Shown: positions 4,200 through 47,652 of the stretch, piece after piece
How the letters are laid out: every line of letters starts with the position of its first letter
Numbering within the stretch: the stretch's first letter is position 1
Virus record (IMG/VR): IMGVR_UViG_3300031867_000002
Coordinates: 160,633 to 224,632 of that record
Length of the DNA stretch: 64,000 nt
Strand: one strand, 5' to 3'
DNA from: a virus
Taxonomy: Duplodnaviria; Caudoviricetes
Notes under the pieces: model-generated
Told to the model about the DNA's origin: nothing
The model's input: the letters and a program-made list of their open reading frames with translations, nothing else
Databases searched by the model: none
Position numbers and translations under genes: made by a program

Positions 4200-6236
4200 T
4201 TATTCCTCCACTTGTCTAGGCTTACTATACAGATAACCGTCTTTGAGACTATTAAAGATTTCAGTAAAGTTATTAAAGTCTGTATTTTCAAATTCATATT
4301 TAGGTTGATTCATATAGCTCAAATTCTTACTTGCCATTGCGTGTACAATCTCTAAATCTCTTTCTGTAGAACATTTTACGAATACATTACGATTATCTTC
4401 TTCTGGCGTACCAGATACATCATCAAAATCATGATAAGTTAATAATCCATCAGGATATCTAACTCTTGTAAAGTATTCGATTACATCATCATATACGTCT
4501 TCATAACTTCCAAAATGGAACCAACGATGGAAAAATTCAATCCAGTTATGAGATTGTAAGTCATCCATAAATTGTGCTTCTCTCTTCCATTTAATATCGT
4601 CTCTATGAAATCTATTTTCAAATTCGTATACTCTATCTGGTATATTAAGATGACCAATAAGAGTTGTACGAGACATATTGAATTCAGATGTTATACTTGG
4701 ATACAGAGCTTTATAATCAAAGTCATCTAAGTTATCATATATAGATACTGGACGACCATTAATTCTCATCTTAGAATAATCACTATTGAGTTTAGGGTCT
4801 GCTACAAATGCACCAGGGAAAGATACCTTAGGAGTATTTGCATTTACATTATTACCTGTAATAAATCCATTCTTATAATTAAAGATAGCTTGTCTATTCT
4901 TAAGATATACAGTTTGTCTATAAATCTTACTCCAACGTGTATTGTTAAGCAATACATTATTATATGCTGAATCAATATCTGCAGACTTAAATTCAATACA
5001 ATACTGTACTATTGTGTCCATGATATTATAGAATACAAACGTCTTATAATCTTTATAAGGTAACTCAGCTAAGTTATGAGTAATATGACTATAATCAAGT
5101 TTTCTTACACCACATACCATTTGTCCGATAAAGTCTAATCTATATGATGGTAATGCTGCTCGACCTTTTCTTCTAGATGCGAAATGAATCATTTGGTCGA
5201 GATATACGGAATAAGAACTAATCTTTGCAAAGTCATTACGTTCTTCATAATTAAACTCATTTTTTTCATCAATAAAGTACTTAACTTCTTTGAATCTGAA
5301 ATCTGGACTGCACATAATCTCTTTTGGGTCACCACCAAGATTAATAATACGCTGAATGATATACGGAATATCGAATGCCATATTCCAAGCTAATACAAAA
5401 TCAGGTTTTAGATTATTGATATAATTAAACAAATGCTTAAGCATTATAAGTTCATCTTTCTCATCATAGAAATGGAACTGCACCGTCATTTGTTTTATTT
5501 TATATTTATCTGCATTTGCTAATCCACCAACTGCGTCGATTAAGAACTCTCTAAGGTCTCTTTCCATTGCTGAAGATTTAGACATCTTTTCAAATTCAGC
5601 AATCAATGGATTCTTATCATTTCTTAATAAGAATGAGTGAATAACTAATGACTGGTCATCAATAAATGATACTGCATTTATAGGACACTCACCCATTTCT
5701 ACAAAGTCACCTTTACAATTAATAGTATCAGCTTCGATATCCAAATAAGACTTAGATGTTTTCTTATAAGAATTCAAATAAGTGTGAGAAAACTGAAAAC
5801 GAATATTATCTTCAATATCCATATCAGACATTAATACCGCAGGATGATAATTGCACAAACGTTTATTCGCTTCTCTATTACCGTTACGAATATTTTCCCA
5901 GAACTTATCAAGTTCTCCGATTCTCTCAGCAATATCTTTTTGAAGCTGATTATAAGGTACCATTATACATTTACAATCTTCTAACATAGCATACTCAAGA
6001 TTATAATTTGGTATCATCAATCCATCCTTAAGCATATAATACTCGTACAACGGGTCTACAATAGTTTCTAGAAACTTTTCTCCATTTTCATTGTCTTTGA
6101 TAATAAGGTCAATAACTCCAGGTTTCCATTTACCATTATTATCCTTATGTGGATAATGATAGATTGTGTTAAATAAGGCTAAATCCCAACCAGGTGGATA
6201 ACGTCCGATTAATAAATTATTGTCGTATTCTTTCAT
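4200..6236 (-). CDS. Family-B DNA polymerase, N-terminal subunit (3'-5' exonuclease + palm motif A)
   Basis: ExoI YLDIEAD, ExoII AWNMAFDIPY, ExoIII YNIMD and motif A DFDYKALYPS; motifs B and C are absent. Start moved to ATG 6236 (GGAGG RBS, promoter at 6290-6302). Confidence 0.85.
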   Translation of the reverse strand: MKEYDNNLLIGRYPPGWDLALFNTIYHYPHKDNNGKWKPGVIDLIIKDNENGEKFLETIVDPLYEYYMLKDGLMIPNYNLEYAMLEDCKCIMVPYNQLQKDIAERIGELDKFWENIRNGNREANKRLCNYHPAVLMSDMDIEDNIRFQFSHTYLNSYKKTSKSYLDIEADTINCKGDFVEMGECPINAVSFIDDQSLVIHSFLLRNDKNPLIAEFEKMSKSSAMERDLREFLIDAVGGLANADKYKIKQMTVQFHFYDEKDELIMLKHLFNYINNLKPDFVLAWNMAFDIPYIIQRIINLGGDPKEIMCSPDFRFKEVKYFIDEKNEFNYEERNDFAKISSYSVYLDQMIHFASRRKGRAALPSYRLDFIGQMVCGVRKLDYSHITHNLAELPYKDYKTFVFYNIMDTIVQYCIEFKSADIDSAYNNVLLNNTRWSKIYRQTVYLKNRQAIFNYKNGFITGNNVNANTPKVSFPGAFVADPKLNSDYSKMRINGRPVSIYDNLDDFDYKALYPSITSEFNMSRTTLIGHLNIPDRVYEFENRFHRDDIKWKREAQFMDDLQSHNWIEFFHRWFHFGSYEDVYDDVIEYFTRVRYPDGLLTYHDFDDVSGTPEEDNRNVFVKCSTERDLEIVHAMASKNLSYMNQPKYEFENTDFNNFTEIFNSLKDGYLYSKPRQVEE

Positions 6237-6311
6237 GATATATGATTCCTCCATTTCTCTCAGCGTACGTAATACGTAACCTGAGTCATTTATATAATTG
6301 TTTCTCTTAGT

Positions 6312-6447
6312 ATAAAAAACAATATTAGTCCTCCATGGCCCCGATACCATGGAGGACTCATACAAGAGGAATAAAAACAATGCATCAAAGAGGAAATCAT
6401 TCATGCCTTCAACCAAGATAGCTTTATGGAGGCCTAAATGCTATCTT
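6312..6447 (-). ncRNA. Candidate late sRNA-1 (three anti-SD/anti-AUG modules)
   Basis: AACA tttaag TAA promoter (6446-6458), 5' hairpin AAGATAGC/GCTATCTT, CCTCC and TTCCTCT motifs, 12-bp terminator stem (6327-6358) with U tract; no credible ORF. Confidence 0.6.
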
Positions 6448-6524
6448 ACTTAAATGTTAACATACCCTATTAACCATTTATGAGAAAAACATCTTTATAA
6501 AATGCTCAAAAGGAGGAATTAATC

Positions 6525-7475
6525 ATGCAAAACTTTTTAGATATGAATGTTTTAGCTAGAGGAGCTAACATTCCGCCAGAAGATAATAATCAAAATGATA
6601 TTGTTCCAGTTGTACAAAATAGTGTTGAACCAGTTAAAAGAAAAAGAGGAAGACCTAGAAAATCCGAACAACAACAAAATACAGAAACTACTGTAGTTCA
6701 AAGAGGTTCTACTTCCTCATCTGGTCTACCATTATGCCAAACTAATGACCCGTATGAAGATACTTATGAAGAAACTAATGATATGCTCAGACTATCTATT
6801 GCTCAATTAGATATCTTGGCTGGAGATGTAAAGGGAGAAATTGATAATATCAGAGGTTCTAAAACTCTTAAAGGTAAATATAAGTATATCTCTGATTTAT
6901 GTGCTACAGCAAGTTCTCTTGTATCTTCTAAGATTTCTGCTATTAAAGAAATTAATTCTGTTAAGACTAAATGTCATGAACTTGAAATTAGAAGAATTAA
7001 AGATATTAAGTCTGCTGCAGCAAATCAGCAAGACGATGATAAATATATTGCAGACCTATATAATGCATATATTAATACACCTATTGGAGCTGGTCAACAT
7101 CCAGCACTTCAATATACATCTTCTAATGTAGCTGGTAATATGAGTGCATTAATTGGAGGAGTTAATGCTTCTCCTACAAATGAAGAGCAGAACTTTAATA
7201 ATTTTATGAATAATCTTACTCCAGAACAAAACCGTATGATTCTAGGAGATAATCCTAATATTGAAACTGTAATTGTCTATGACCCTAATACTGGTGATAA
7301 AATGTTTGATGTGGTTGATACTAGTACGGGTACTCCAGTTCCTAACTATCCAAGACCAGATAGAGGATTGCTTGATGATACTAGTATTGATTTTGCTACA
7401 GGTATTGCTTCTAATACTAATATAGGACAATCTTGGAAAGTAGTTGTATTAGGAGACATGATAAATCACTTCTAA
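6525..7475 (+). CDS. Hypothetical protein with AT-hook motif (KRKRGRPRK) and coiled coil
   Basis: 316-aa ORF, AGGAGG RBS, promoter AACA tcttta TAA at 6488-6500. Confidence 0.7.
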   Translation: MQNFLDMNVLARGANIPPEDNNQNDIVPVVQNSVEPVKRKRGRPRKSEQQQNTETTVVQRGSTSSSGLPLCQTNDPYEDTYEETNDMLRLSIAQLDILAGDVKGEIDNIRGSKTLKGKYKYISDLCATASSLVSSKISAIKEINSVKTKCHELEIRRIKDIKSAAANQQDDDKYIADLYNAYINTPIGAGQHPALQYTSSNVAGNMSALIGGVNASPTNEEQNFNNFMNNLTPEQNRMILGDNPNIETVIVYDPNTGDKMFDVVDTSTGTPVPNYPRPDRGLLDDTSIDFATGIASNTNIGQSWKVVVLGDMINHF

Positions 7476-11899: not shown

Positions 11900-12937
11900 A
11901 TGGACTATGGAGATAAATTAAAAGATATATTACGTAGAGTAATAACTGAAGCTGATGAAGAAGATGATGTAGGCGCTGGAGAATCTGATAACTTCATGGA
12001 TGATGACTCTGGTGGCGATGACATGGGAGGAGACGAAGATGTAGGTGCTGGAGAATCTGATAACTTCATGGATGATGACTCTGGTGGCGATGACATGGGA
12101 GGAGACGAAGATGTAGGTGCTGGAGAATCTGATAACTTCATGGATGACGACTCTGGTGGCGATGACATGGGAGGAGACGAAGATGTAGGTGCTGGAGAAT
12201 CTGATAACTTCATGGATGACGACTCTGGTGGCGATGACATGGGAGGAGACGACTCTGGCAGCGATGACATGGGAGAAGACGACATAGGAGAAGGTGAGTC
12301 AGATAACTTCATGGATGATGAAGGTGGAGGAGACGACTCTGGTGGAGAAGAAGGCGGAGATGAATCTACTGAAGATACTGGTGAAGAAGGAGATGAATCT
12401 TCTGAAGAAGGTGGAGAAGAAGGAGAAGAGTATGACCTTAATAAGATAGAAGAAGAGCTATTCTCTTCACTTACTCCAGAACAAATCGCTATTAAAAATC
12501 ATGAACTAAAAAATCAGTTTATTGAAGTGTATTCTATTATTGGCTCTACATTGGTTCGTATTAATGATATTCCTAAATCAAATGACAATATTAATATCCT
12601 TAAATTTATAACAGAAAAATTATTAGAACTTAGAGAGATGATTGATTATAATATTACAGTAGCTTATTCTACTAGAACTTATATTGAAAACAATATTATC
12701 TATCAACAATGTATTGCTACTTTAAATGCTATTGCAGATATTATTGATAATATTCCTAATGTAAATGGTGGAGAAAGTAATGCTGAAGCTGAAGAAAATG
12801 GAGAAGAAGATTTAGGTGAACCAGTAGAACCTGATGAATCTGAAGAAACCAATACACTTGATGTATCGGATAGTAGTATGTCTGATTATCAAGAAGAATC
12901 AGTTAATTATAATAGCGATTATAATACCCTGTTTTAA
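11900..12937 (+). CDS. Highly acidic repeat protein upstream of the capsid gene (scaffold/core candidate)
   Basis: GGAGGTG RBS with ATG at 11900; D/E/G-rich 24-aa repeats followed by a helical domain. Confidence 0.65.
   Translation: MDYGDKLKDILRRVITEADEEDDVGAGESDNFMDDDSGGDDMGGDEDVGAGESDNFMDDDSGGDDMGGDEDVGAGESDNFMDDDSGGDDMGGDEDVGAGESDNFMDDDSGGDDMGGDDSGSDDMGEDDIGEGESDNFMDDEGGGDDSGGEEGGDESTEDTGEEGDESSEEGGEEGEEYDLNKIEEELFSSLTPEQIAIKNHELKNQFIEVYSIIGSTLVRINDIPKSNDNINILKFITEKLLELREMIDYNITVAYSTRTYIENNIIYQQCIATLNAIADIIDNIPNVNGGESNAEAEENGEEDLGEPVEPDESEETNTLDVSDSSMSDYQEESVNYNSDYNTLF
11966..12320 (+). repeat. 72-bp in-frame tandem repeat, 4 near-identical copies plus a degenerate fifth
   Basis: Units start at 11966, 12038, 12110 and 12182, encoding DVGAGESDNFMDDDSGGDDMGGDE. 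Confidence 0.95.
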
Positions 12938-21195: not shown

Positions 21196-23412
21196 TTAAT
21201 CTCCCATATACTTAAATAAACCATCCATACTATCTTCAGAATTATTGACAACTGGTTCGTTATTAATAAACTTCTGAGGTTGTACCATATACATTAAGTC
21301 GTAAGGAGATGGCTTGTGTTTTCTGAAACTTAGAGGGCTATAAAGCATTCTAGCAATATTCTCGGATTGCATTGCAATCGTAATACTAGGATGTGTCATT
21401 ACAGCTTTCTTAAGAGTAAGAATCTGATAATTAGTCTGATTAGGAACACTCCAATCAGGCATTTCAATAATATCAGTCTTATCTCTAATCTGATTCATAA
21501 TAATAATCTCTAAATGAACAGACATAATATGGTCTAATCCAATATTATTAAGTCTATCAGATAAAGCTTTAAGGAATGACTCAGCTGTATAAGAATCTGT
21601 ATTAGCTTTAAGGTCAATAACTTTAATTACAGATTCAAGGCGTTCAGACATATCATCATTATGAATTCCTACATCGAATAACGGAGAATTATCATCTTCA
21701 AGTAATACAGATACAGGGATATCAATATCTTCATTATTATCTGCAAGATTCTTCAGTTCAATATAATCATTAAGCCAATCTGTAAGATATAAGTTATCCA
21801 TATTAGATGTCTTAATTGTTATAGTTTCATTAGAACCATGCTTTTGAAGATAGAATACATTGATATAATTCATAGAATCTTCTATATTAAAGTCATCATT
21901 ATCATCGTCATCGCCATCATCTAAAGATGCAATAACTTCTTCTTGAATATCTCCGTCTTTAATAATAAGATGCCATTTCTTGAAATCAGGAATATTAGGA
22001 TTGATAAAGATAGTGCCTTCATCTATAATAATATACTTAGCAATTTCTTCTTCAGACATAATAGAAGTATCAAAAGTTACACCATCAATCTTCGCCTCAA
22101 GAAGATGTTTAGCTGACAACATCATTTGAGTTAAGCGTTCTGTTAAGTTTGTAACGCTGTAAACACCAATGTTAGTTGCTGGTACAATATTATAAAGTTC
22201 ACCCATACATCTTCTACAGATACCTCTACCATTAGCTGCAGATAAACACTTAATTGGGGAACGTAGATAAATTACTTTACCAATAAGGTCTTGATTTTCT
22301 TTTACTACTCTATATACATTACCAAGACGATGTTCAATTCCCATAGGGTCAATACGATACCATCTATCAGCAATTTTCTTAAGAGCAGTTTCATCTTCTA
22401 CATAATATTCAAGAAAGTTACGAGTACCACAATCATATCCAGGGTCAATATTGTCTGAATAAGGTATTGTATACTTTCTTGTAGTAGCACAATTTAAAAT
22501 CATAATTCTAGAGAAATGTCCTGAACGAGAAGTATTCTTCTTAGAAAGATTCTGTGCAATACGAGCAATAAGAGATTCCAATATATGAAATGCTACATTA
22601 TTTGCTCCTCCTGAGATATAAGATGTGTTTACAACATAAGGGAATACGCCGCCTTCACCATTAGGTTTAACTCCAATATTGATATACATCTCACGAGCCT
22701 GTTTAGGCTTAACACCTTCTTTAGCTCTAAATGCATCTGATAAGCAATGGTCTCTACCAATATATTGTTTAGCATTTACAATATAATCAATAAGACGATT
22801 CATATCATTAAGAGCTTCTTGATTCATTTGTTCTGGCGGAAATTGTGCATAGTAATTCTGATTATGTCTATCCATAATTTCTTTAAAACCAGGACAACTA
22901 TAATACATAAGGATAAAGTCTTCCATATTGATACTATTATTAAAGTACCACGCAAATTTGTCTACAAATTTCAAATCTCTTAAACTATCATAGATAGTTC
23001 GATTAAGATTATGAATAAGCATTCTATCTGCTGCATTATTAGAAGCTTGGTCTCTTACAGGCATAATAGCATATTTATCAATATAAGATTTGATATACGC
23101 ATTTGTAATGCCTTTCTTGTTAAAGAACAAATGTTTAGGTTTAATTGTCTGATTAGTCTTTACAATAAAACCCCATACGATAATGTTAATAAGTGCATAT
23201 GCTGGTGGAAGATTAACACTCATACCATTATCAAATATGAATGTTACCTTTGTTTTCTGGACTGTAGGATTCTCAATATAATCCAGAAATACATCTTTCA
23301 AATCGTTTTGAAACTCATTAATAGTTTCTTGTGTGATATCTGCTGTTTTAATAACAACAGGTTGTCCAGTAATTAGTGGTGTAAAAACACCATAGTCATA
23401 AGTTGTAGTCAT
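21196..23412 (-). CDS. Phage multisubunit RNA polymerase beta' C-terminal subunit (probably non-virion RNAP)
   Basis: Bridge helix SKKNTSRSGHFSR, Zn site RSPIKC...GICRRCMG, trigger loop LTERLTQMMLSAKH and HLEIIIMNQ. No NADFDGD, so beta' is split. Preceded by an early-type promoter (23469-23485). Confidence 0.85.
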   Translation of the reverse strand: MTTTYDYGVFTPLITGQPVVIKTADITQETINEFQNDLKDVFLDYIENPTVQKTKVTFIFDNGMSVNLPPAYALINIIVWGFIVKTNQTIKPKHLFFNKKGITNAYIKSYIDKYAIMPVRDQASNNAADRMLIHNLNRTIYDSLRDLKFVDKFAWYFNNSINMEDFILMYYSCPGFKEIMDRHNQNYYAQFPPEQMNQEALNDMNRLIDYIVNAKQYIGRDHCLSDAFRAKEGVKPKQAREMYINIGVKPNGEGGVFPYVVNTSYISGGANNVAFHILESLIARIAQNLSKKNTSRSGHFSRIMILNCATTRKYTIPYSDNIDPGYDCGTRNFLEYYVEDETALKKIADRWYRIDPMGIEHRLGNVYRVVKENQDLIGKVIYLRSPIKCLSAANGRGICRRCMGELYNIVPATNIGVYSVTNLTERLTQMMLSAKHLLEAKIDGVTFDTSIMSEEEIAKYIIIDEGTIFINPNIPDFKKWHLIIKDGDIQEEVIASLDDGDDDDNDDFNIEDSMNYINVFYLQKHGSNETITIKTSNMDNLYLTDWLNDYIELKNLADNNEDIDIPVSVLLEDDNSPLFDVGIHNDDMSERLESVIKVIDLKANTDSYTAESFLKALSDRLNNIGLDHIMSVHLEIIIMNQIRDKTDIIEMPDWSVPNQTNYQILTLKKAVMTHPSITIAMQSENIARMLYSPLSFRKHKPSPYDLMYMVQPQKFINNEPVVNNSEDSMDGLFKYMGD

Positions 23413-23489: not shown

Positions 23490-23591
23490 AGAAAAAAGTT
23501 GCGGGTGAACTTAATCACCCGCATTTTGAGAAAGGAACCAATTATGATAGATAATATTATACCTAGTCACGTCACCCTTTACATAACTATT
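23490..23591 (-). ncRNA. Candidate late sRNA-2 (one anti-SD/anti-AUG module)
   Basis: AACA taagaa TAA promoter (23590-23602); CAT-AATTGG-TTCCTTTC immediately before terminator TGCGGGTGA/TCACCCGCA with U tract. Confidence 0.45.
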
Positions 23592-23603
23592 ATTCTTATG
23601 TTA

Positions 23604-24065
23604 TTAGTTTCTTGTCTTAGACATTTCTTTAGGCTGCATCTTTTTGACATTCTGATTACCTTTAATGCCTTGACCAGAAACATAAGCACGTTGTCCTTTA
23701 CGAGCAGCCATCTGAGCTTTATTAGCATACTTCTTCTTAATAGCAGCAAGAAGCTTTCTTTCTACAATACGATTCTTAACAAGTTTCTTCCAAAGAGAAT
23801 CGTTATTATCCTTAGCAAGCTGAAGTGCAGCCATACCAGTTCTACGAGTTAGGTCATCATTCTTATTAAGACGAACTAAAGTTTTTCTGCTAATCTTATT
23901 TGCTTCGAGAAGAACATCAGCTGTTTCAAGAAGTTCACGCTTGTCTTCATCAGAATCGGAATAGTGGTCATCATAGAAAAATGCTTCGAGAAGCTCATCC
24001 ATATTAAGTTCCATTTCAACCTCACGTGCGGCATCAATGGTATTAGGATTTGTATAAAGTCCCAT
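23604..24065 (-). CDS. Small head-internal protein candidate (acidic propeptide + basic mature part)
   Basis: MGLYTNP N-terminus, LLE-T/LLE-A sites, then a K/R-rich domain; late promoter at 24150-24162. Confidence 0.6.
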   Translation of the reverse strand: MGLYTNPNTIDAAREVEMELNMDELLEAFFYDDHYSDSDEDKRELLETADVLLEANKISRKTLVRLNKNDDLTRRTGMAALQLAKDNNDSLWKKLVKNRIVERKLLAAIKKKYANKAQMAARKGQRAYVSGQGIKGNQNVKKMQPKEMSKTRN

Positions 24066-26743: not shown

Positions 26744-29700
26744 ATGTCTATTAAAGTACAAAAGTATCTTGCTAACTTAGGCAAATCGGTTGCTTATACT
26801 ACTGCAGATGTATTGTCTGAGAAGTTTACTTATGTAAATGACTTTAAGAATGAAAATCAAGAAGTCTTTAAAGAAGCATATCATTCTATTAAAGATTATA
26901 GAACTACATTTGCTAGAATTAAAAAGACTATTACTGATAATAAAGTAATGGATGCTGCTAGAGTTGGCTTTGATTCTATTGTGTATAGTGTTACTACTGG
27001 TGACTTCTATGCTAAGAATAAAGAGCAGGAAGTTATGAATAAATACGGCGGTAACATGATGCAAGGTATGGACATCGATGATGATGACTTTGATTTCGGT
27101 AATGAAGATGTTACTGATGGTGATAAGGTTATTGCTACTGCTGTTAAAAAGAACAGTAAGTTACAAACTGCTATTACTACAGAAGCTATCGTCAAAACTG
27201 GCAAAGCTCAAATGGATGTTTCTAAAGAGAATACAATGTTACTGTATACTCAAAATGAGCGTCTTATAAATAAACTTGATGGTGGATTGCAAAACATCAC
27301 TGGTTTCTTAAAACAGAATGCAGAGCAGACTGCAAAAGTACAAAATCAGATGAATGAAAATCTCAACAAGTTTATGGCTAATGTAGATAATAACGTTGCT
27401 AAACTCACTAAGCAGATGGATGAGTTACTCGAAATGCAGCGTAATTTATATGCTAAACAAACTCAAGACCAGAATCAAAAGAAAAAAATAGGTTATGATG
27501 ATATCATCGGTAGAGGTGGTGTAATCAATCTTAAGGAATATGGTAAGTATATAGGAAGAAATGCTAGTAATGAATTAATGCAGGCTATCCCAGGTCTCAA
27601 TATGTTACTCGGTGATGGAGGTATTGAAGGTTCTAACTTACTTGCTACAATGCTTGCTAACCCTGGTAGAGAATTATCTAAGGTTGTTGTTAATAAAGCA
27701 CTAGGAAAGAGTTTTGACCAAGCATCAAAGGCTCTTAATAAAACTCTTGAAAATCTTGTTCCTTCTCTTATTGCTAAAGCTAATGCTGCAGCAAAGAAAG
27801 AAGATGCTGGTTTAGCTGGTCTATTAGGTAAGATTCTTGGAATTAAAACTGGTTCTAATGAATCTGTAGACCCTAATAAATATGTCAAAGGTGCTATTCC
27901 TTTTGATGGTATTACTAAAAAGGCTATTGTAGATGTAATCCCTTATTATCTTCGTAAAATGACATCTGCTATGACAGGTGGCGAAGAGATGACATTTGAT
28001 TATGCTACAGGTAGATGGACTAGTATGAAGTCTGCTAAGAAAGCATATGATAATATTACTACATCTGCTCAACGTAACACTGAATCTCTCATTAAAGGTA
28101 CTATTCAAGCTGGTACTGGTAGAAGTTTTGACTCTATGTATAAATCTAAAGATGAGTATGATAGAGCTAATACAGCAGTCCAATCTCTTGCTCTTAAACT
28201 TCAAGCCGCAGGTGATTTTGGTTCTCTTAGAGAATCTGATTTAACTTCTCCAGAAAAAGCTATCTACACATCTATGAAGAAGATTTTCCAGCGTAGTGAA
28301 CATTATCGTTATGAAAAAGATGATAATGGAAGACTTAAGATGAGAAGAGGATTCAATGGTCCAGATATATCTGCAATTGATGGACAACTACTTGAAATTC
28401 TCAGAAGTCAAAATAGTGCTATTAAGCAGCTTAATGAGCAAGGTGGTATTGCAATGCTCGCTGCTATGGAAGGTATTACTGGAGATGCTAAGTCATATCA
28501 TGGTAAGAGTTATGTAGACGCTAAGGGTGATATGAATGAAAGACATATTCAAGAAATGCCTACTGCTCAGGTTCTTTTAAGAGCTAAAGATGAATATGGC
28601 GTTACACTATATCAATATCTTAGAAGTATGGGACATAGCCTTAATTATATTAAAAAATATTCCACTTATTTACAAACATTACCTTTCATTAATAATGGAT
28701 TAAATCCTAATCCTCCTGGTAGCGGTGGTGGTGGTAATCCTAGTGGTACACCACCAACATTAGATATGCCAACATCAAATGATGGCTTTGTTGATTATGG
28801 TAATAATGCAAAAGACGATAAATATGCATCTAGATATTATGAGCAGCTGGAAAGAAAAGCTAAAGACAAAGCTAAAGAAAGCTTTGAATCTAATATAAAA
28901 AGAGTAGAAGAACAGGCACGTAAAAAAGGTAAGTCTGTTAGTTTCGTAACTGATTCTTATAATTATCAATCTGAAGGTGAACAGATTGGTATGTCTCGTC
29001 TAGTATCCGATTACTACGGTGAAGGTGGACAATATGAAACTGAGTTCAAACTGAATCAGCAGAAAGAGGATGATAAGAAAGAAAAAGAAAAGTGGAAGAA
29101 AATGGAAGAGCTTATTGGTAAAGAAAATACTGATAAGCTTAAAAAAGCCACCGATAAATATGATAAAGATAAGGGCTTAATGGAGAACTTATCTAAAGCT
29201 ACTGGCACTACAGAGAAACTTGCTATTGCAGCTAAATGGTTTACTCAAAAGACTAACTTTGCTGTTATGGATAAAGTAACTGGCACCATTGTAAAGACAG
29301 ATGCTTGGCTACGTAATCTTATTTATGGTGAAGATTTGAAAGCTGATGACCAGAAAAAGTCTCTCTGGCAATTAATGAAAGACCATACATCTGACTTCTT
29401 CAAAAATGTTCAGAAACAAATTGGAGAGCTTTTTAGTCCGATTAAGAAGTACTATGATGAGAAAATAAAGCCTCATGTAGACAAAGTTAAAAAGAAAATC
29501 TTTGGTGACGTAGACTCTGAAGGTAATATCTTAGAAGAGGGTGTACTCTCTCATTTTACATCTGGATTCCGTAAAGGTATGGCTAAAAATAGAGATGATG
29601 TACATGCTATGTGGAAGAAGGAAATTGAAGAAGCTAAGAGATTAGGAGATAAAATAACTAATTCGGAATCGTCTTCTAATTCTAGTGATAGTTCATCTAG

Positions 29701-32700
29701 CTCATCTACTAATAAATCTAACATGTATAAAGGTGGATTAAACCGTGGAACAAAATTATCATCAGAACAAATTGAAGCTAAAAAACAAGAATTACGTGAT
29801 AAAATAAAAAGTAAGAATCATGCAAATGTAAATGATATTATGGAATCATATTATCAAGGAAGTAATTTATTGAGTGGTAATGATACGCATAGTTTTAACC
29901 CATCTGATAATATAAGAACAAAAATACAAAATTTAAGAATTAGTACTATATCTCTTGAAACTGAAAAGAAAAACTTAAAAAAAGATATAAAGGAAATTGA
30001 ATTTAGAGTTAGTACTTATAATCATTATAAAAATAATCCATCACTACAAGAATTATTAGATGAGTTAACAACTAAAAAGAATAGACTTGTAGAAATAGAT
30101 ATAGAAATAAAGCACAACAGCAGTGCTATGAAAAAACTTAATTTAAAATTAAAAAAACTTCCTAATATGGCAGCGGGTGGTGTTAATAGAACTGGTCGTC
30201 CATTCCAGTCTGTACTTTCTGCAGGTGAGTATCTTAATGGCTCTAAGATTGGTCAGACAGGTATCTATACTATTCCTAAGGGTGGTGTAGTTTATAACCC
30301 AGCTCCTGCATCTGTAAGAAATATTCAAGCTCGTAATGAAAAGGCTTTTGTTAGAGGTCTTAGATATAATGCTGAAGCTAATGATGATTTAACACCTACA
30401 AATAAAAATAAGAAAAAAGAACTTACCGAAGAAGAGAAAATAGAACATCAAAAGTTAGATGCTGAAGCTAAAACAAGAATTGAACAGGTTGATATTAATA
30501 AACTTACTGATTGGTCAACTCTTGAAGATGATAAACAAAGAGCTGCTTTCTTAGGTAATATGGCATCTAGAGGTGCATTAGGTGGCGTAGCTGGCTTATT
30601 AGTTGGCGGTCCATTACTTGGTGCAGCAGTAGGCGCTGCTTCTACTTTAACCAAATCTACTGGTTCTTTTGCTAGCTTCTTATTTGGTGATGTAGAAAAG
30701 GATAAGAAAACTGGTGAAATCATTGTTGATTCTGATGGTAATCCTAAGAGAAAAGACACTGGTTTAATTTCTAAAGAACTTCAAAAAGCTGCTCCTGATA
30801 TGGCTAAGGGTGGTATGGCTGGTATGGCAGCTGGATTATTAACTCCTCTTGGTCCATTAGGTGGTTTATTAATCGGTACAGGTTTAGGATTCGCAAAGAA
30901 TTCTGAAATCTTCCAAGGCTCACTCTTTGGTGAGGGTGGTATATTCTCTGATGAGAATGTAGATAAACTCAAGAAGGGTGCTAAGAATATGGGAATTGGT
31001 GCGGCTACAGCAGCATTATTCCTTCCTGGTCCATTTGGTCTTGTTGGTAGTGCACTTATTGGTGCTACTGCGGGTTATGCTACTTCTACAGACAAATTCA
31101 AAGATTTCTTACTTGGCGAAGAAGGAGAAGATGGTAAACGTAGAGGTGGTGTTCGTGGAGCATTAACTGATAATGTAGTTAAACCATTAAAAGGTTTTGG
31201 ACAAACAATCATAGAAAAAACTATGGATGAAATCTTTGGTAAGAAAAATGGTGAAGGAGAAGATGCTAAAAGAGAAGGAGGATTATTTGGAGCTATTAGA
31301 GAAAATGTAATAACTCCTATGACTTCTGGTGCTCAATCTATCTTTAAAGAAATCACTAACAGTGTTGTAGATATTAAAGATTTCACAGTAGATATGATGA
31401 GAAAAATTAAAGCTAATGCGGCTGGTAATGATTTTCTAGGCGGTGTTTGGGAAAAAGCTACTAAAATTAGTGGTGGAGTTATTGGAGCTGCAGGTAAAGT
31501 TGGTCGTGCTGCAACTAAACCTTTTAGACTTTTAGGTGATGAAGGTATTGGTGGTAGACTAAAGGCTAAACGTATCAGAAGCGGTAGAGCAGATGATATG
31601 ACAGCTAGAGAAAGATTGGCTGCACGTGGTAGTTTAGGTATGGCCAAAACAGACCAGTGGAGCGATATAGATGAGTATTTAGCTGATGGTACTAGTGGTG
31701 ATATCGAATCTCTATTAAATATTCTTTCTTATGATGATAATGAAAAGAGTATTGATAAATTTAAAAATAATGCTTATGTCACATTAGGACAAGAGCTTAG
31801 AAATAATATTAATAGAAAAGATGCTGGTAAGATTATTAAGATGCTCAAAGAAGGAAGAGAGAAAGATGTTGAGCGTTTCTTAAATACTCGTAAATATGAT
31901 GATGCTACTAAGAGTGCTGTCATGAAAGAATTGAAAATCCATAAAGGTAAACTTGATAAAGCTTCTAAAGATTATCAAGATATAAAAGATTCTGGTAAGA
32001 CAGTTCAACAATATCTATTATCTAAAGGCATCAATGTAGATATAAATGATAAGAAAGCTGTTAGAAATCTTAAACTTATGGCTAATCGTGAATTAGCACA
32101 TAAAGAAGTAGGATTAACTGATGAAGAAGTAGCATTTGAAGCAGAGAAAGCATTTTGGAAAGGAAAAGATTCTCCTCTTGAAACTGTTAATACAGCTGCT
32201 AAGAAAATGGAAGAGATGTTAGAAAATATTCACTATGATTTAACAATCGGAAATAACTACGATAAATTATCTTCAGAAGAGCAAGCTAAATACGGTTCTA
32301 GAGAAGCATATATTAAATCTATTAAAGATGCTAAATCTCAGAAAGCTATTAAAGAAAATGCTGCTAATGGTGGATATGTTATTGGTAAGAATAATAAGAT
32401 TGGTTCAATAAATACTGGTTCTATTAAAGCAGGTGACTTTATTACTAACGACTTATGGAACGATTATGCTCCTATGTACACTGGTGACCTTAAAGGTTAT
32501 CTAGCTGCTGATAATAGAATGGATAGTGTTCTTAATAAAGAGATTGAAGAGATAATTGATACAGCATGTCAGATGTTTGATGGATTAGCATTAAAAGAAC
32601 TTTGCGTTCCCGAGAGAATTCAAGATGACGTTCAGAAGTATGTACAAAAGACAGTAAATAAAGAAAAATGTACTGAAGAAGAAGCTATCAAAAAGATTAA

Positions 32701-35700
32701 GACAATGAGACGTAAGATTATTATCTCTCGTGGAGAAACAAATTATGTATTCGAAATGTCTTATACTTTAGATGGTACTACAGTAAATCCAAATAAACGC
32801 CAACCTAATTCATATGATGCAGCTAAACGTCAATTTATAGAGGATTATCTAGCTGACCATAGACCGAAGAGTATAGAAGATAGTTATATGTCTTTCGGTG
32901 ATATGATATCTAAGTCTCTTAAACTCGGTGTATATATGAATCCAATAAATATACCTATACTAGATAGTATGCCTTGGTTTACTGGTATTCATTCATCATT
33001 TGTAAAAGATACTATTAATAAACGTGGTAAAGAAATTGTTGGTGGAGTTATAAAAGGAATAAAGAAGATTGGTTTTGAAGCTGGTCTCGCTTTAGGTGAC
33101 CATAATATCAATGATAATTCTTTTATCCAAAGACTTAATAATTATCAATATGAACAAGAAGCTGAAAAAGAATGGGTTAAAGAAGTAGATTCTTATCAAC
33201 GTGCATTAGAAAAGATGAAAACTATCAATACTCAATCTGAAGAAGTACAAGCTAAACTAAAAGAAGAGTTAGATGATAAGTTTTATTTTCTTGATGGTAT
33301 TACTAAAAAGCTTGATTTAGGTGTTGATAGATTTAGTGCTTGTACTAAAGAAGAACAAGAGAAAGTTCATAAAGAATTCGTATCTCTTTATATTCAAGCC
33401 AAGAAAGATAATCAAGTATTTGGTAGAGGTCTTATTGGTGGTATCAAGCAAATTGGTAAACGTATAGCTAAAGGTAAATTAGGTCAAGCCGTAAAATTTA
33501 TTTCTGGTTCTGCCAAAATACTTTTTAAAGATAATGCAGAAGGAACTAAAGAAGAAAGAATGAAAAAACTTAGAGAAAATCTAAAGAAGAAGGCTGAATA
33601 TGCTTGGTCTAAAATGTTTAAACCTAATCCAGATAATAATAAAAAGCCTGAAGCTGGTCCTGAATTACAAAAACTTGTAAAAGAACTTTATAAGGATAAA
33701 CATGGAGAAGATGTCCTCTGGAATGACTTAACAGAAGCAGAACAAGATGCTATACATGCTGTATTCATAGAAAGATTCATTGATGGTAGATATCAAAAGC
33801 TTATGAATAATATCTCTGATAATATTAAAGCTGGATTTATATCTAAAATTCAAGGATTCTCCAATAATATAGGAATGGGAATTAGAACAGCTGGTGCTAA
33901 AGTAGCTGATGCTGCTAATAGTGTTAAGGAATGGGCTAAGAAAAAAGCATCTAATGCTAAGAGAGATAAAGTTATATCTCTTGCTATTAAAAATAAAGAT
34001 GAACGTCTTGATGAAATAGCTATCGAATTATATGGTAAAAAATATAATGAATTGACAGATGCTAAAGAACAGAATAAAGTCAATGATAGATTCTATGCTA
34101 GATATGGATACGGTAAGCGTGGTGCTATTGCAGAGACATTTATGAGAGGTGCTATTAAAAAAGTAGTAGGTTCTGATAAATATAAATCTGTTACTGGTAC
34201 TCTTAAGTCTGGTATTAGAAATGCTACTACAGGTAAACTTGATGCAGTAAGAGCATGGAAAGCAAAGAATCAAGAACAAGATACTCTTATCGGTAAATTC
34301 TTTGACAGAATGGATGCAAGACAATTAAGAAAAGATAAAGAGAATTTTGAAGGTAAGAAGGATTCTAAGATTGGTAAAATTATCAAATGGCTCTTTATTG
34401 GTGGTATATTTGTTCCACTAGTAGTAGGATTTCTTAAAGAAGATGTATTACCAGCAATTCGTGAAAAAGTTAAGCCATGGCTTGCTAAAGCTAAAGATAA
34501 AATCTTTGGTGTTAAAGATGAAACTACTGGTGAATATAAAGGTGGTATAATTTCTGGTATTGTTAATCCTATTAGAAACTTCTTTAAAACTAAATTCGAG
34601 AAGGTTCATAATTGGATTCATAATGAAGGAGAATTTAATGCTAAAGATAGAGGTCTTAGTGGATTCTGGAATAGTTTAACTAAAGTAGGAGCTCATATAG
34701 TAGAACTCTGGAAAACTGGATTTACTACAGTATATGGTGACTTTGTTCCAAAACTTCTAGAAAAAGTCGGAAAATCTATGATACCTGCATTTGCTGCTGT
34801 ATTAAGAGGACTTGGTTCCTATATTAAAGATGTAATAGAAGGAAAACAAGGTGCTATGGAAATACCAGGATTTTCTGAAAGTCAAGATATTTCTACACCA
34901 GAAACTACTACAGATATTCCTAATACTGTAGGAGGAAATATTCAAGTTAAGTCTCCTGGATATAAAGGTAGTGTACAGTTTGGTGATGGAACTAGTGCTA
35001 GTGGTAATAAATTAAATTCTACAGCTAATTCTGACGGTTCTAAGACTATTACAAATGAATCTACTGGTAAATCTGTAACTTCTAAAACAACTGGAGATTA
35101 TTATTTTGCTGGTAAGAATTCTAATGGACAAAATATATATAAAGATAGCAAAACTAATAAAGCATATATTTCTGATGGTAATGGGGGTTATGTTCCGATT
35201 AGTGATTATCAAGAAGTATATGATGAATCTCTTGCCAACAATGAAGCATTCCAACATCAAAAAGAATTAGAAAATGCTAACGCTTTACAAGCAGATTATA
35301 CTGGTCGTTCAGCAAAAAGTGTAATTGCTGGAAATGCTGCTAGAATATTAACCAGGTCTGGTAATATGGTGGTTCTTAATGGAGCACAAGGAACTAAAGC
35401 CCTGAGCACTGCATCTAGATTACTAGCTGCTCCATTTAAAGCTATTGGTCATATTCCGAAAGGTGGACTTATTGGTAAACTTGGTAGCGGTATTGTTAAA
35501 GTAGGTGAAGGATTAACTAAACCAGCAGCTTGGTTACATGGTAAAACAATGAACTTAGCTGGTACTCTTGGTGATAAAGTTACTGGTGGCACTTTCTCTA
35601 GAATTGGTCAAAAAGTAGTAGATAAAGAAACTGCTGCAGCAGCTAAGATTGCAGAAAAGAATGCATTAAAAGCTGCAGAAGCTGAGGCAAAAGTTACTAA

Positions 35701-38700
35701 AAATGCAGCCAAGAAAGCATTTAAAGCTGATAAACTAGCACAAAAAGTAGCATCTGGAGAAGCTAATTTCTTTGAAAAAGCTATTGCATTTATTCAGAAA
35801 TCTATAAATTCTATTAAAGACAAAATAGCAAAAGTATTAAAGAATGAAAAAATTGCTAAGATATTTGGTAAAGGTGTAAAAGATAATGCAGATGAAATTG
35901 CAGAAAATCTAGCTAAAGATACAGCAGACACATTAGCTAGAAATTCTGATGATATTGCTAAGAAAGGTGCAACAGTTGCAGCAAAAGGTGCAGCTAAAGT
36001 ATTGTCTGTTGTCATGATGGTAGCAGACTTCCTTTTAGGTGTAGACAACTGTAGAAATCTTTTGGGTATAGTAAGTCCTAAGCCAACATTTGTAGAAAGA
36101 CTTACAGGCGGTCTTATTAATATAATTCCTGATGTTATTATGACTGCCGCTGAGGCAATTACCGCTGCATCATTTGGTGGAGCAGCTGTAGTTGGTGGTA
36201 TATTAGCAGCTCTTAGTATAATTGCAACTCTCGTTATTTCTTGGGATAGTCTAAGAGATTCTATTGTAGGAACTATTGTAAATGTATTAGATAAAATTCC
36301 TGGTATTGATATGTCTAAACTTAAGAAAGAAAGAGCTGATGCTAAAGCAGCTGTTGAAGCTTATAATACTAAGAACAATACAAATCTTAATATTGAAGAG
36401 TATAATAATTTAATAGGCAATAAGACTGTAGCTTCTAAAATAGGTGATAGTGCTAAGAATACATGGTCGGCTATGTTTGGTTATGATTCTGCTACTAAGA
36501 ATACTGTTTTAGAAAAGACAGCCAATCTTGAATCTAAAGGAAAAAGTGATAAAGTCAGAAAAGCATTGGCTACTATATTCTCATCCATTTGGCAAAACTT
36601 TGGCAAAGAAGACTTTAACTTCAATACACAATATGATGAAGATGGGAATGAATTAAAAGGAAAAGAAAAACTAAACGCATCTAAATCTAAATTTAATGAA
36701 GCATCTACAAAGATTATTAGTAACCTTAATAATATATTAGTAAGTGAAGACGAATATATCATCAATAAAGTATTAAGTAATTGCTATGACTTTACTGGTC
36801 CTTGGGATGCTACTCATCATCTTAAACAAGTATTTAAATCTGGTAGAGATAATCCAGAAACGCAATTTACTGCAGCAAATGAAAGTCAAATGAACTGGCC
36901 TAGAATCAGGTCTATAGCTGGTGTACTAGCTATAATTAACGAAATCTTTGAACCATGTAATAAAGTTCAAGAAGTTGGCAATGCAGTAGTAATGGTACTT
37001 CTCGAAATGTATTTCACTAAAGAAGAAATAGGAGAAGAAACATTTAAACAAATTGATGACTATAATAATGGTAAATATAATTTAGATGCATCTCAATATA
37101 CTGGAACAGAAACTGGTGATAATACAGATTCTGAATCTGGTGAACAAGTAGCTACAAACGCAAATGCTAATAATAAACTTAGTCCATTACCCACAAAGAA
37201 AGATCCATTAATGGCTGGTTTAGAAAAAGGAATGAGTTGGTTAAAAGATAGTCCTTTAGAAAAGATAGGCATATACTTTGGCAATTTAATTAATGACGCA
37301 GTAAAGAGAATGACTGGTGGGTTTGAAGGAATTGAACAGTTCTTTAGAGGTCTATCTGGTAAGAACTCTTCCGTTAATAGAGGAATTGATGAATTGTCTA
37401 TTCTACCTACCGATAAGAATTATTGGAAGATTGAACTTGATAAAAAGAATCCATTTATGAGTGGTCTATTCAACTTTGTAGAATCTATGAACAGAGTTGT
37501 TAAAGCACCATTCGCATTGGCTGCAGCTTCTCTTACTGCAGGTATGAGTGCTGTACAACAGAGTGGTTCAACAACTAATAATTCGACTACTACAATAATC
37601 AATAATTCTAGTAGTAGCGGTAGCACAGGTAGCACATCAACTACTACTGGAGCTTCTGGCTCTACAGGCGGTACTACATCAACTACTACAACTACATCTG
37701 GTGGATTATGGCAAGGTATCAAGAATACTGCTTCTAAGTTATGGAATGGATTTAAAGGTCTATTCGGTAAAGGAAGAGATGGTTCTGACAATTCTGGTTA
37801 TGGAGACGACCCATATCATATCTATCAGAGAGCTTATTCTGGTTCTTATAGAACTGCAGGGGATTCTGAAAGCCAAACTATCGCAGATTCTGGTTGTGGT
37901 CCTGCATCAGCAGCATCTGTACTTAGAATGTACGGTAAGAAAGGTGATATGCGTAATGCTGTTAACTATGCACTTAGTAATAAGTACAAAGAAGTTAATG
38001 GCGGTACTTATCCTGAATACTTTAATTCTTATCTCAATAAGAATGGTATTAAGACTAATTCTAATGCTAATAATACTGATGTAGTAAATAGCCTTGCTCA
38101 AGGTAAACCTGTTATCTTAATGGGTAGAGATAGTCAGAATAGTGGTAGAACTCCATATGGTTCTAAATATTCTCACTATGTAGTAGCTAGAGGACTTGAT
38201 AAGAATGGTAATGTAATAGTAGAAGATTCAGAAGATAAGCGTGGTAATACACGTTATAATCTTGCTGATACTCTGCGAAATTCTACTGTAAGAATTACTA
38301 CAGGTAGAGGTTATGGTAGAGCTAATGAATCGCTTGCTAATAGATATATCTCTGGTGTATCTGGCGTAACAGCAGCATCTATTAGTAATATCGTAGCTAA
38401 TACTGCTAATGCATTATCTGGTATTAAGGTTGTTAATAGTACTGCAACAGCTACTACTCCAACTAATAATACGACTAATACAGCTTCTACAAATGGAGTT
38501 GCAGGTAGTATTACTCCAGATACAGATGTAAAAACTAAATGTGGATATACAGAAGAACAACTTAAAAATGCTATTAGTGCTGTAAATAATGGTTGTTCTG
38601 CTGAAGCATTCCCTAAAGAAGCTATTGCTGTAGAAAATTCTTATGGTGTAAACGCATTATTTACATGTGCTGTTGCTATTCTAGAACATGGATGGGATGG

Positions 38701-41700
38701 TACTATAGGTATTAATACAACTGGTGCTAACTGGGGTAACTATAATCCATTTAACATACAAGGTAGCCCTAATTCTTCTAACGGTAGATGGAAAGACTTT
38801 ACTAGTCTTACAGATGCTTTCGATAGTTTTGGTAAACTTATTACTGGTAGTACCTATTATGGTGCAGGATTAACAACTCCTAAACTTATAGGTCCAACAT
38901 ATTGTAATGATAAATGGCCAGGACAAGTATGCGAAATAGCTGATATGATTGTTAAACACATCGGCGGTTCTGGTAGAGGTAAAAGTCTATTTAGTACTAT
39001 AACAAATAAATTCTTGAAAAACGTAAAGAATACAATTGCATATTCAGCAACTAATAATGTACTTAATTTACTTAAGGGTAATAAATCTACAACAGTTTCT
39101 AATTCTACCAATAACAATACATCTCAAACATCTACTAGTGGTGCTGTAGTTCAGGGACAAAAATATGATTTGACAGATGAACAACTTCGTGTTCTCACAT
39201 CAATGTGTATAGGAGAACAAGGTGAAGAAAAAGAAGGTATTGAATTTGAAGCATCATTAATGTGCAACTTGTTTGAGTATAAAAAATATTATAATGCTAC
39301 AAAAAAAACCAATCTATATGATTACGTTATTAATGGTGGATGGTTTGCTGGTGGTAATACAAATCATACAACAACCGACGAACAAAAAGAATGGGTTAAA
39401 AATGTTATATGTAATGGTAATCGTATAATTCCATTGTGTATTGTAGAGCATGACTATATTGGTGACCTTGTAAAAATAGAAGGACCAGGTACTCTATCTG
39501 ATAAATCTACCTTTGTTCCAAATCAAACAAAAGTAACTAATCAATGGGGTGGTACCTGGACATTCTGGGCATTTCCTGGAAATAACCCTAAAAAAGACCC
39601 ATTTGGATATACAGATAAGTCTATTAAAATGTGTGGAGGTCAAATCCCTGACCCTCCAGCAGGTTATACCCCTAATTCTAGTGGTTACGGTAGAGGTATT
39701 TTTGGTAGAGCTGAAGAAGAAGATAAATTTAATCCATTAAATTTGACAACAAACGATTTATTAAATTCCCCATCTGATGTAGTAAACTCTGGCAACTTTA
39801 GAAATTCTGGTGCTATTGAAAGAGCTAATAAATTAAAAGAATCTGGTCAAGACCCAAATACATTTGGTGATGTTACTAAAGTAGAAAATGACCTCAAAGA
39901 ACAACAAAAATTTGAAAATGTAACTAAAGTAAATACTCCATTAGAAAATGCTATTCAAAATTCTACTACTAATGCTTCTGGATTAATTCCAACAATGCAG
40001 AAGTATACGGGTGGTTTATTACAAGGCATATTCGGTCATTTCTATGATGCACTTTATGGTGCTGAATCCGATAGTGGAACAGTATCTTCAACATCCTCTG
40101 GTAGTACAGCTACAGCAGCGTATAACGGTAATGATGTTGTATATGCTGCAGCTATGGTATTCGAAGCTTTAGGAAAAGTACATCCTGAAGGAACTTATAA
40201 AGGTGGATTCTTTGATATTACATGTAGGGATGGTACAAAAATTGACCATGTACGTTGTGACTGTTCTGGTCTTATGACAGCCATTATTCAGTATATGGGT
40301 TATTATACTTACAAGAGTTCACAATCTGAATACACAGATTCTTATCATGGCGAAGGATTAAGCTCTTCTATGTCATTATCTGATATATATGATAAAGATG
40401 GTAATCCAGTTACAGATTGGGAAGAAATATCTAAATCTAATTGTACGGGTTCTAATGCAAAACCAGGTGATATTAGATTTGAATCTGGACATACGGACAT
40501 GTTTGTATGTTATAAGAGTGGTTCCGACTGGCCCAAAGGTTTCAATGCAGGTTCTACAAATGGTATTCTTGCATCTTATAAGGCAGCAGAAGCATTCTTT
40601 AATAATAATAATTCTTTCCCAATGGATGGAAGTGTCGGTGCATCTACTATTAGAGATGCTACATGTATAAGAGCATTTAGATTTAAAGGAAGAAGTGCAA
40701 GCGGTAGAGGTAAAAAAGCTGATAAAGCAGATTTGGCTAGATTAAATAGACGTATAAGACCAAAAAATTATATTCTCGATGAACAAGGTCGTAGAATGTA
40801 TCTTAGTGAATTACTAAGGAAAAAATATAGTTCTTTATCTAAGTTCGGTAAAGGTAAATTTGGTCGTGCTGAAGAAGAAGATAACACTACTCCAGATGAA
40901 ACTACATTTATCGGACCACAACTTCCAGCAGATAAGATTACTCCAGAAAATACTCCTGGTGTTTCTGAGAGTGATGTTGCTACTATGACTGCTACTACTG
41001 CTACTACTAATGATAAACTCTCTACAACAACAACTGATACTTCTACTACTAACGGTGTAGAACCTAAAGCTAAATCTTTAATCTCACTGTTAAAGAAATA
41101 TATCGGATTGAGTACTAATAGTGTAACTGGTCAAGATGACACTAATAATACAGTAGTAGCTGGTGCAAATGTTATGGGAGCTGCATCTGGTGGTGGTACT
41201 AAAGATAATCCAGTTAAAGGTATTGATATCAGTTATTGTGATAGCGAAAATATAGATTGGGATGCTTTAGCTAAGGAAATTTCTTTTGTAATTATTCGTA
41301 TAGGTTCTTCCCATAGTTCTAAAACTGATGCTAAAACTATGACTGATGAATTATTTGAATCTCACTATGAAAATGCTACTAAACGTGGATTAGCAGTCGG
41401 TGGTTATTTCTATTCATATGCTCCTAACGCAGAAGCAGCTGAACAAGAAGCAGAAAAATGCTTAGAGATTATTAAAGGTAAGTCATTCTCACTTCCTATC
41501 TATATTGATATAGAAGAAAAAAATAGTTGTTTAAGAACTAGAATAGCTGGTGAAGTAGCACAAGCATTTATGAATAAAGTAATAGCAGCTGGTTACGCAA
41601 CTGGTATTTATTGTAGTGCTAGTGCATTTAATCAAACTAACTTTAATTCTCCTCCTGGCTCTGGTGTACTTGATAATAGTAAATATTCAATCTGGGTTGC

Positions 41701-46207: not shown

Positions 46208-46216
46208 CTATATAGT

Positions 46217-46346
46217 AAAGCTATTAGTGGTGCAAATAGCTTTACAGTAATTATCCTCTCGTTTTGAGACGACATTATTCGATTCCTTTGGATAAAGATT
46301 AACAATGGAACGGTGATACGACATATGTCGTATCACTTGTTCTGTC
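46217..46346 (+). ncRNA. Candidate late sRNA-3 (two anti-SD modules)
   Basis: AACT atatag TAA promoter (46206-46218), 5' hairpin AAAGCTATT/AATAGCTTT, CAT-TATTCGA-TTCCTTT module, perfect 24-nt palindromic hairpin at 46313-46336. The next gene has its own promoter. Confidence 0.55.
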
Positions 46347-46399
46347 TTAAACTACCTAATCTCGAACAATTAGGTAAATATGTTAATGGAGGTGATACC

Positions 46400-47510: not shown

Positions 47511-47652
47511 AAAGCAGGCTACCTCGTGGGTAGCCTGTAAAACTTTTGTTTAATAAATATATATTATTATAGTGAATAGTAGAGGTCAGACAATGCTAAT
47601 CTGAACTGCACGAGGATATGCAGAATACTATATATTATTGGAGGTCATTTCA

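Follow-up and report, generated by a model that had tools for sequence, protein, structure and literature searches.

Why does a giant phage maintain a late promoter that is followed by no gene? The promoter belongs to an uncultured phage of about 225 kb from the cattle gut. Its IMG/VR record is complete (224,632 bp, terminal repeats present, G+C content 31%), and bovine-gut sequencing runs contain near-identical sequence. The stretch analysed here, the window, is the final 64 kb of that record (64,000 nucleotides); coordinates refer to the window unless stated otherwise. The nearest isolates are the Bacillus phages AR9 and PBS1, with 31% identity in the N-terminal/exonuclease part of the DNA polymerase. 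In the window phage the family-B DNA polymerase is a split gene, and its N-terminal/exonuclease part, polB, lies at 4200-6236 on the minus strand (Pfam PF03104). A 288-bp gap separates polB from a divergent gene of 316 amino acids (6525-7475, plus strand; weak Pfam AT-hook match), for which the promoter-motif scan shows a divergent late-type promoter at 6488-6500 (plus strand). The promoter without a gene sits in this gap. Elsewhere in the window, one open frame extends over 5,647 codons (26744-43687, plus strand).

For AR9, late promoters have been mapped experimentally. The consensus is AACA-(6N)-TA/G, and the final base is the transcription start (PMC5312081). The sequence AACAtttaagTAA at 6446-6458 (minus strand) fits this AR9-type late consensus, with AACA at -11 to -8, six bases, a T and then the A/G start, here the A at 6447. 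The motif is no chance string in this genome: 51 of 87 matches to AACA-N6-TAA are intergenic, and intergenic sequence makes up 8.4% of the genome. With a spacing of 5 or 7 instead of 6, merely 4-5 intergenic matches are found. Nearly all intergenic matches face a gene, usually 13-50 nt upstream of the ATG. AACT-N6-TAA is another common form of promoter, with 39 of its 79 matches between genes. At least one of these, at genome position 16527, appears by eye to drive a tRNA-like sequence directly. AR9-like early promoters (TATATTAT-N4-GTG) occur about 20 times per genome. Three early promoters precede a near-identical leader of about 50 nt (GUGAAUAGUAGAGGUCAGACAAUGCUAAUCUGAAC...), each before a different small gene; one promoter and leader occupy 47541-47650 (plus strand), and the other two begin 95771 and 66383 bases upstream of the window. 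The phage's own RNA polymerase is identified by its beta homologue only (21196-23412, phrog_3015).

Behind the distal promoter lies a self-contained unit (6314-6458, minus strand) that consists of the late promoter, a 5' hairpin, two UUCCUCU boxes and an intrinsic terminator. Its predicted product, which we call sRNA-1, is a non-coding RNA of about 134 nt (6314-6447, minus strand). As the AR9 late consensus ends at the start base, sRNA-1 should begin at 6447, which is exactly the base of the 5' hairpin stem. This hairpin (AAGAUAGC...GCUAUCUU, 6415-6447, minus strand) therefore begins at the predicted +1, and its loop holds CCUCC (6428-6432). It is followed on the same strand by box 1 (CAUGAAUGAUUUCCUCUUUG, clade consensus CAUGAUUUCCUCU, 6386-6405) and box 2 (UUGUUUUUAUUCCUCUUG, clade consensus UUGUUUUCCUCUGUUAA, 6363-6380). 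A stem scan places the terminator stem-loop, with a stem of 13 pairs, at 6327-6358 (minus strand), and the terminal U run can be read from the sequence at 6314-6319 (minus strand). Separate from all this, polB has a proximal promoter (AACAattataTAA, 6290-6302, minus strand), 54 nt ahead of its ATG (6234-6236), which is preceded by a strong Shine-Dalgarno (SD) sequence. The original prediction had named a late promoter without a gene, a 5' hairpin, a terminator and a separate polB promoter, and all four are where it placed them.

The predicted 134-nt RNA folds better than expected (z = -3.7). It contains CCUC or CUCC six times, and shuffled sequences contain them 0.46 times.

Relatives were gathered by a polymerase search of IMG/VR and metagenome contigs and graded by polymerase identity. 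All relatives with at least 74% polymerase identity carry the unit at the matching position, in 14 distinct sequences from about ten lineages, and nhmmer finds exactly one copy per genome. The distal promoter is kept as AACATTTARRTAA in nearly all close relatives, with variants in L068, L069 and L075. The proximal polB promoter has the AACT form in L006, L011, L073 and L074, and the U run ahead of it is present in all relatives.

The stems are kept while their sequences change, which is the covariation that had been proposed as a check. In the terminator helix 92% of cells are paired, compared to 41-49% in slid controls, and 11 of 12 pairs have changed on both sides. The 5' hairpin is found at +1 or +2 in every lineage, with at least seven different stem sequences. 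Two segments do the opposite and stay near-invariant as the surrounding sequence drifts: CAUGAUU(U)CCUCU (box 1) and UUGUU..UUCCUCU(GUUAA) (box 2). GGUUGA ahead of box 1 is likewise conserved. The boxes are mostly unpaired in the predicted folds across lineages (unpaired probability 0.33-0.88 overall; 0.35-0.88 for box 1 and 0.33-0.79 for box 2). In every lineage but L075 there are two to six CCUC/CUCC per RNA compared to 0.2-0.6 in shuffles, a 6- to 13-fold enrichment. An extra CUCC is always paired within the 5' arm of the terminator, opposite a conserved GGAG, such that the stem base always reads CUCC...GGAG.

The intergenic enrichment of the promoter motif, the excess of CCUC/CUCC, the fold and the conservation in relatives all speak for a real unit. 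We consider it highly probable that the sRNA-1 unit is a conserved, non-coding late transcription unit. It stands alone, contains no conserved ORF, and its stems covary around anti-SD-like boxes that are predicted to be accessible.

The composition of the boxes differs from what was first described. Three tandem anti-initiation modules had been proposed, since the plus strand reads as three SD plus ATG strings (6364-6382, 6387-6405 and 6426-6440). The three strings are present, but what is conserved is two UUCCUCU boxes, with CAU in box 1 only. Similarly, an anti-SD sequence in a hairpin loop does exist in the window as CCUCC, but it is limited to the window's own subclade and L068. Box 1 is conserved except in L068, where it is degenerate, and in L075, which has a shortened RNA that retains one CUCC and one UUCCUUCCUU box. 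One lineage lacks the unit altogether. L077 (a 9-kb contig with a coverage of about 6; positions 1430-1460) has one fused promoter (AACATatataTAA) in place of the two, and precisely the sRNA-1 unit is missing. Hence, the unit is a discrete module that is dispensable at least in some settings.

Could the conserved signal be a coding one? The plus strand could encode mini-ORFs of 11-16 codons, each with an SD and an ATG, the minus strand could encode a peptide, or the region could be a functionless relic of gene starts. The three plus-strand strings are good SD plus ATG combinations, and in the window genome a minus-strand frame stays open for 60 codons into polB. We rejected this 60-codon frame upstream of polB since it is not conserved in relatives. 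More generally, ORFs vary in frame, length and presence between lineages on both strands, and L075 has none at all; a conserved ORF with a start signal, the mark of a small-protein gene, was found on neither strand. In most lineages the complement of box 1 has a spacing of merely 2-4 nt between SD and ATG, and by eye we found no plus-strand late-type promoter facing into the region. Decay does not produce covarying stems with fixed boxes either; this is the pattern of a functional RNA. A coding or relic origin is thus very improbable. Because the ORFs are not conserved across lineages, the plus-strand strings are the mirror image of motifs that act at the RNA level, and not genes.

A second possibility is that the unit works in cis on polB. 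The distal promoter together with a regulated terminator would then form a leader or attenuator, or the unit would buffer the proximal promoter, and the RNA itself would have no job. The position of the unit fits this idea: a unit of like design lies directly upstream of polB in relatives from 90% down to 42% polymerase identity. There is also RNA-level control of the region, as indicated by a hairpin outside sRNA-1 that is conserved in the 5' UTR of polB and directly precedes the SD (6258-6284, minus strand; consensus fold). This hairpin has a conserved ACGUAnUnCGU core and an outer stem that covaries in relatives (four pairs with changes in both arms). A role as translational operator is possible, an idea comparable to the autoregulation of T4 gp43.

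However, a promoter lies between the terminator and polB in all lineages, and some distant relatives add an early promoter there. We noticed no alternative antiterminator pairing, either on visual inspection or among the predicted folds. As a partner of the boxes the polB start region is poor, at rank 113 of 135 ortholog groups, and a mere insulator would need no invariant single-stranded boxes. In L077, where the unit is missing, polB depends on a single hybrid promoter. Furthermore, a terminator with the next promoter following within about 10 nt is an ordinary cassette boundary in the window phage. Promoter-terminator-promoter is the normal cassette layout of this phage, which argues that sRNA-1 is a separate gene. 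We therefore regard action in cis on polB as improbable.

If sRNA-1 is a gene of its own, what does it pair with? We computed duplex energies between the single-stranded centre of sRNA-1 and all start regions. As a class, start regions reach -19.4 with the real centre and -16.3 ± 1.05 with shuffled centres, about 3 SD better. The strongest individual target, at -31.7, is no outlier against the shuffled centres, whose minima average -28.8 and go down to -36.7. We then ranked targets across the window genome and five complete relatives by calling genes, mapping orthologs and combining ranks; these genomes are not independent. No orthologous target is consistently at the top in the six non-independent genomes, where the best geometric-mean rank is 0.05 among 135 ortholog groups. 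The expectation that pairing would exceed shuffled controls hence holds for start regions as a class, but not for any single target.

All good target matches carry an SD of the GGAGGAA(A)U type. Since this SD is shared among the matches and no top target emerges, the boxes look like a generic anti-SD device. The neighbouring 316-aa gene was considered as a specific target. In the window genome it ranks second when the shorter start-region window is used and fifth with the other one, and across the six genomes it ranks 7 of 135. Its SD is of the common GGAGGAA type, and thus its standing as a specific target is unproven. An extended target was also rejected. The conserved CUGGUUGAGACAU has its complement ATGTCTCAACC at one gene start of the window genome (145822), which is a coincidence: exact matches of ATGTCTCAACC in G002 and G003 are the sRNA locus alone, and the window's own RNA does not have the motif.

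Early phage messages had been suggested as targets. This did not hold up, as start regions behind early promoters are matched no better than late ones. With no difference between the two classes, late messages of the phage itself would be hit too. Silencing that is specific to early or defence genes is thus unsupported. Three bovine-gut RNA runs contain pieces of the phage, assembled into contigs of about 150-270 nt at a depth of 2-4; these lie on parts of polB and of the 316-aa gene and not on the unit.

sRNA-1 is not the only unit of this kind in the phage. The same design had been claimed to recur at 23.5 kb and 46.2 kb, and the architecture is indeed shared and conserved in relatives, but the sequences are unrelated by nhmmer. 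sRNA-2 (23491-23602, minus strand) is an RNA of about 100 nt upstream of the RNA polymerase beta gene, for which separate early and late promoters exist. The sRNA-2 promoter (23590-23602, minus strand) follows directly after the stop of the gene at 23604-24065, the RNA carries a conserved box, UUCCUUUCU, and the terminator is at 23501-23522 (minus strand). Four of the six genomes retain sRNA-2, and the other two, G004 and G005, lack it cleanly. sRNA-3 (46206-46348, plus strand) lies upstream of the RusA gene and has CU-rich boxes in most lineages. It combines an AACT-type promoter (AACTatatagTAA, 46206-46218), a 5' hairpin that is positioned at +1 and bears a conserved UGGUG loop, and a terminator (46313-46336), all on the plus strand; all six genomes examined contain a unit of like design. 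The nhmmer search shows no sequence kinship of sRNA-1 with either, and as it finds a single copy per genome, the "family" of three units is one of shared architecture only. At least five more units that run from a late promoter to a terminator and show no obvious ORF lie outside the window, at genome positions 2069 (minus), 12700 (plus), 36986 (minus), 38586 (minus) and 67121 (plus). Some of these have a CU-rich box and others do not, and the unit at 12700, of about 210 nt, is strongly structured.

Further away in the clade, relatives at 42-56% polB identity (L015, L029/L030, L036/L122, L085 and L089) also have units of like design before polB. All of these distant analogues except the one in L089 show an obvious CU-rich box (CUCCUUU, UUCCUUU, CCCCUUUCUU or UUCCUCU), and L085 retains GGUUGACAU as well as UUCCUCU. 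The sRNA-1 profile finds no match to these positional analogues with nhmmer. A pattern scan of IMG/VR for promoter plus box recovered the known relatives, and its 14 extra matches share no architecture and are due to chance. A blastn search against cultured phages gave no match.

Have such RNAs been seen before in jumbo phages? The original prediction knew of none. A 2025 review of phage-derived sRNAs agrees insofar as jumbo phages are unmentioned (PMC12197685). However, the start-site data for AR9 hold two, labelled as antisense. Among the entries of Table S3 covered here, the late starts at 75478 (minus strand; step height 3757) and 115851 (plus strand; 278) are both listed as "antisense", to g090 and g142, and 3757 is the highest step among the late starts listed (Lavysh et al. 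2017, PMC5312081). The RNAs from these starts are ORF-less, about 80 and 94 nt long, and have an unpaired UCCUCC or CCCCUC, a strong terminator and fold z-scores of -5.4 and -5.7. The first (L192; KU878088.1 75400-75490, minus strand) lies in the gap between g090 and g091, beside the non-virion RNA polymerase beta gene. Like sRNA-1, they have an AACA-N6-TA late promoter, an unpaired C/U-rich stretch followed by a terminator hairpin and no ORF, and they are intergenic and near polymerase genes. They differ in having a single box, where sRNA-1 has two to four, and in lacking a 5' hairpin at +1, and there is no detectable sequence similarity. Their start sites have been seen experimentally, but they have never been described as regulatory small RNAs. 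The mapped starts and the ORF-less sequences together mean that AR9 makes RNAs of the sRNA-1 design, abundantly in one case, as far as the listed starts go.

The AR9 signal also bears on a different reading of the boxes. sRNA-1 could be a decoy, whose pyrimidine boxes would sequester a protein or a nuclease with affinity for such tracts. The box core UUCCU resembles the CCUCCUUUCU tail of 16S rRNA, and the bound factor might be an RNA-binding protein that prefers CU, or a host endoribonuclease of abortive infection that targets the 16S 3' end. UUCCU is the sole element common to all sRNA-1 variants, including the UUCCUUCCUU box of L075, and it is also found in the sRNA-2 box and in most distant analogues. 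A specific mRNA target does not emerge, and the AR9 analogue with the highest late start signal among the listed starts fits a stoichiometric sponge. So do the two to four repeated sites per RNA. Repeated sites are the usual sponge layout, as in RNAs of the CsrB/RsmZ type. Yet no candidate binding protein or nuclease has been identified, and SD pairing accounts for the boxes equally well. We consider a decoy unlikely, though worth keeping in mind.

The same resemblance allows a broader proposal, which we put forward as doubtful: AR9-like jumbo phages might generally make highly abundant late mimics of the 16S 3' tail as a global device and not as gene-specific regulators. Such mimics could work as decoys, drawing host nucleases or factors that target the anti-SD tail away from the ribosomes, or as bulk competitors that re-partition ribosomes among messages. 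sRNA-1, sRNA-2, sRNA-3 and the AR9 75478 (minus) RNA would then represent a common strategy in several fast-evolving forms.

We return to sRNA-1 as an RNA that would pair with SD sequences. Known systems of this type are found in low-GC Gram-positive bacteria, where the trans-acting sRNAs RsaE/RoxS and the hairpins of S. aureus RNAIII bind SD regions with C-rich seeds. A conserved SD-complementary seed, mostly unpaired in the predicted folds, is what sRNA-1 has too. It further shares with these RNAs several unpaired pyrimidine-rich SD-complementary motifs, the terminator end and the multi-site layout. In contrast to them it is phage-encoded, has a promoter for a phage RNA polymerase, carries UUCCUCU and not CCCC or UCCC, and has no defined target set. 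Rfam gives zero hits at gathering thresholds, and hits in E-value mode are all 24-86 bits below threshold; no homology to a described sRNA family in sequence or structure was found there.

Among phage RNAs, the closest comparison is the c4 antisense RNA of P1 and P7. It has about 77 nt, pairs through short exposed sequences around a ribosome-binding site and so blocks translation, and it acts on the downstream message of its own operon (PMC12197685). sRNA-1 is also a phage RNA with short exposed stretches that are predicted to pair with ribosome-binding sites, but the start region of the adjacent polB pairs poorly and there is no Rfam C4 match. By analogy, sRNA-1 likely works in a way that resembles both the Firmicutes sRNAs with C-rich seeds and c4, but it belongs to neither group. 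A phage can also attack the same site with a protein. The T4 endoribonuclease RegB cleaves messages at GGAG Shine-Dalgarno sequences and inactivates them. An RNA would mask the site where the protein cleaves it, and sRNA-1 shows no preference for early genes.

In our best explanation, sRNA-1 is a stand-alone gene, transcribed late by the phage polymerase, whose boxes mask SD regions. We hold this with middling confidence, at about an even chance. The AR9-type non-virion RNA polymerase of the phage would most likely transcribe sRNA-1 from AACAtttaagTAA. The 5' hairpin would stabilise the RNA and the intrinsic terminator would end it. The working parts would be the two conserved, mostly single-stranded UUCCUCU boxes, the first of them preceded by CAU, and the lineage-specific CCUCC loop may serve as a third pairing site. 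The boxes are expected to pair with SD regions of the GGAGGAA type, and box 1 also with the start codon. 30S subunits would thereby be kept off the matched messages, whichever these may be, during the phase of infection driven by the non-virion polymerase. Since sRNA-1 displays open mirror copies of ribosome-binding sites, a block of translation starts is probable according to this model.

Besides the lack of a single outstanding target and the equal matching of early and late start regions, two further points count against SD masking. A generic anti-SD RNA would need a very high copy number to matter. The natural variants count against it as well: box 1 is degenerate or lost in L068, only one UUCCUUCCUU box is left in L075, and the unit is absent from L077.

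Strictly lytic giant phages have hardly been explored for regulatory RNAs. sRNA-1 offers a clean non-coding gene that is supported by covariation and stands behind a promoter predicted to be of the phage-polymerase type. Its design recurs within the window phage, in relatives throughout a deep clade, and in the cultured AR9. AR9 with B. subtilis provides a direct experimental system for RNAs of this design. If either ribosome-binding-site masking or mimicry of the 16S tail is true, then phages that bring their own transcription machinery would also have an RNA-based layer of translation control.
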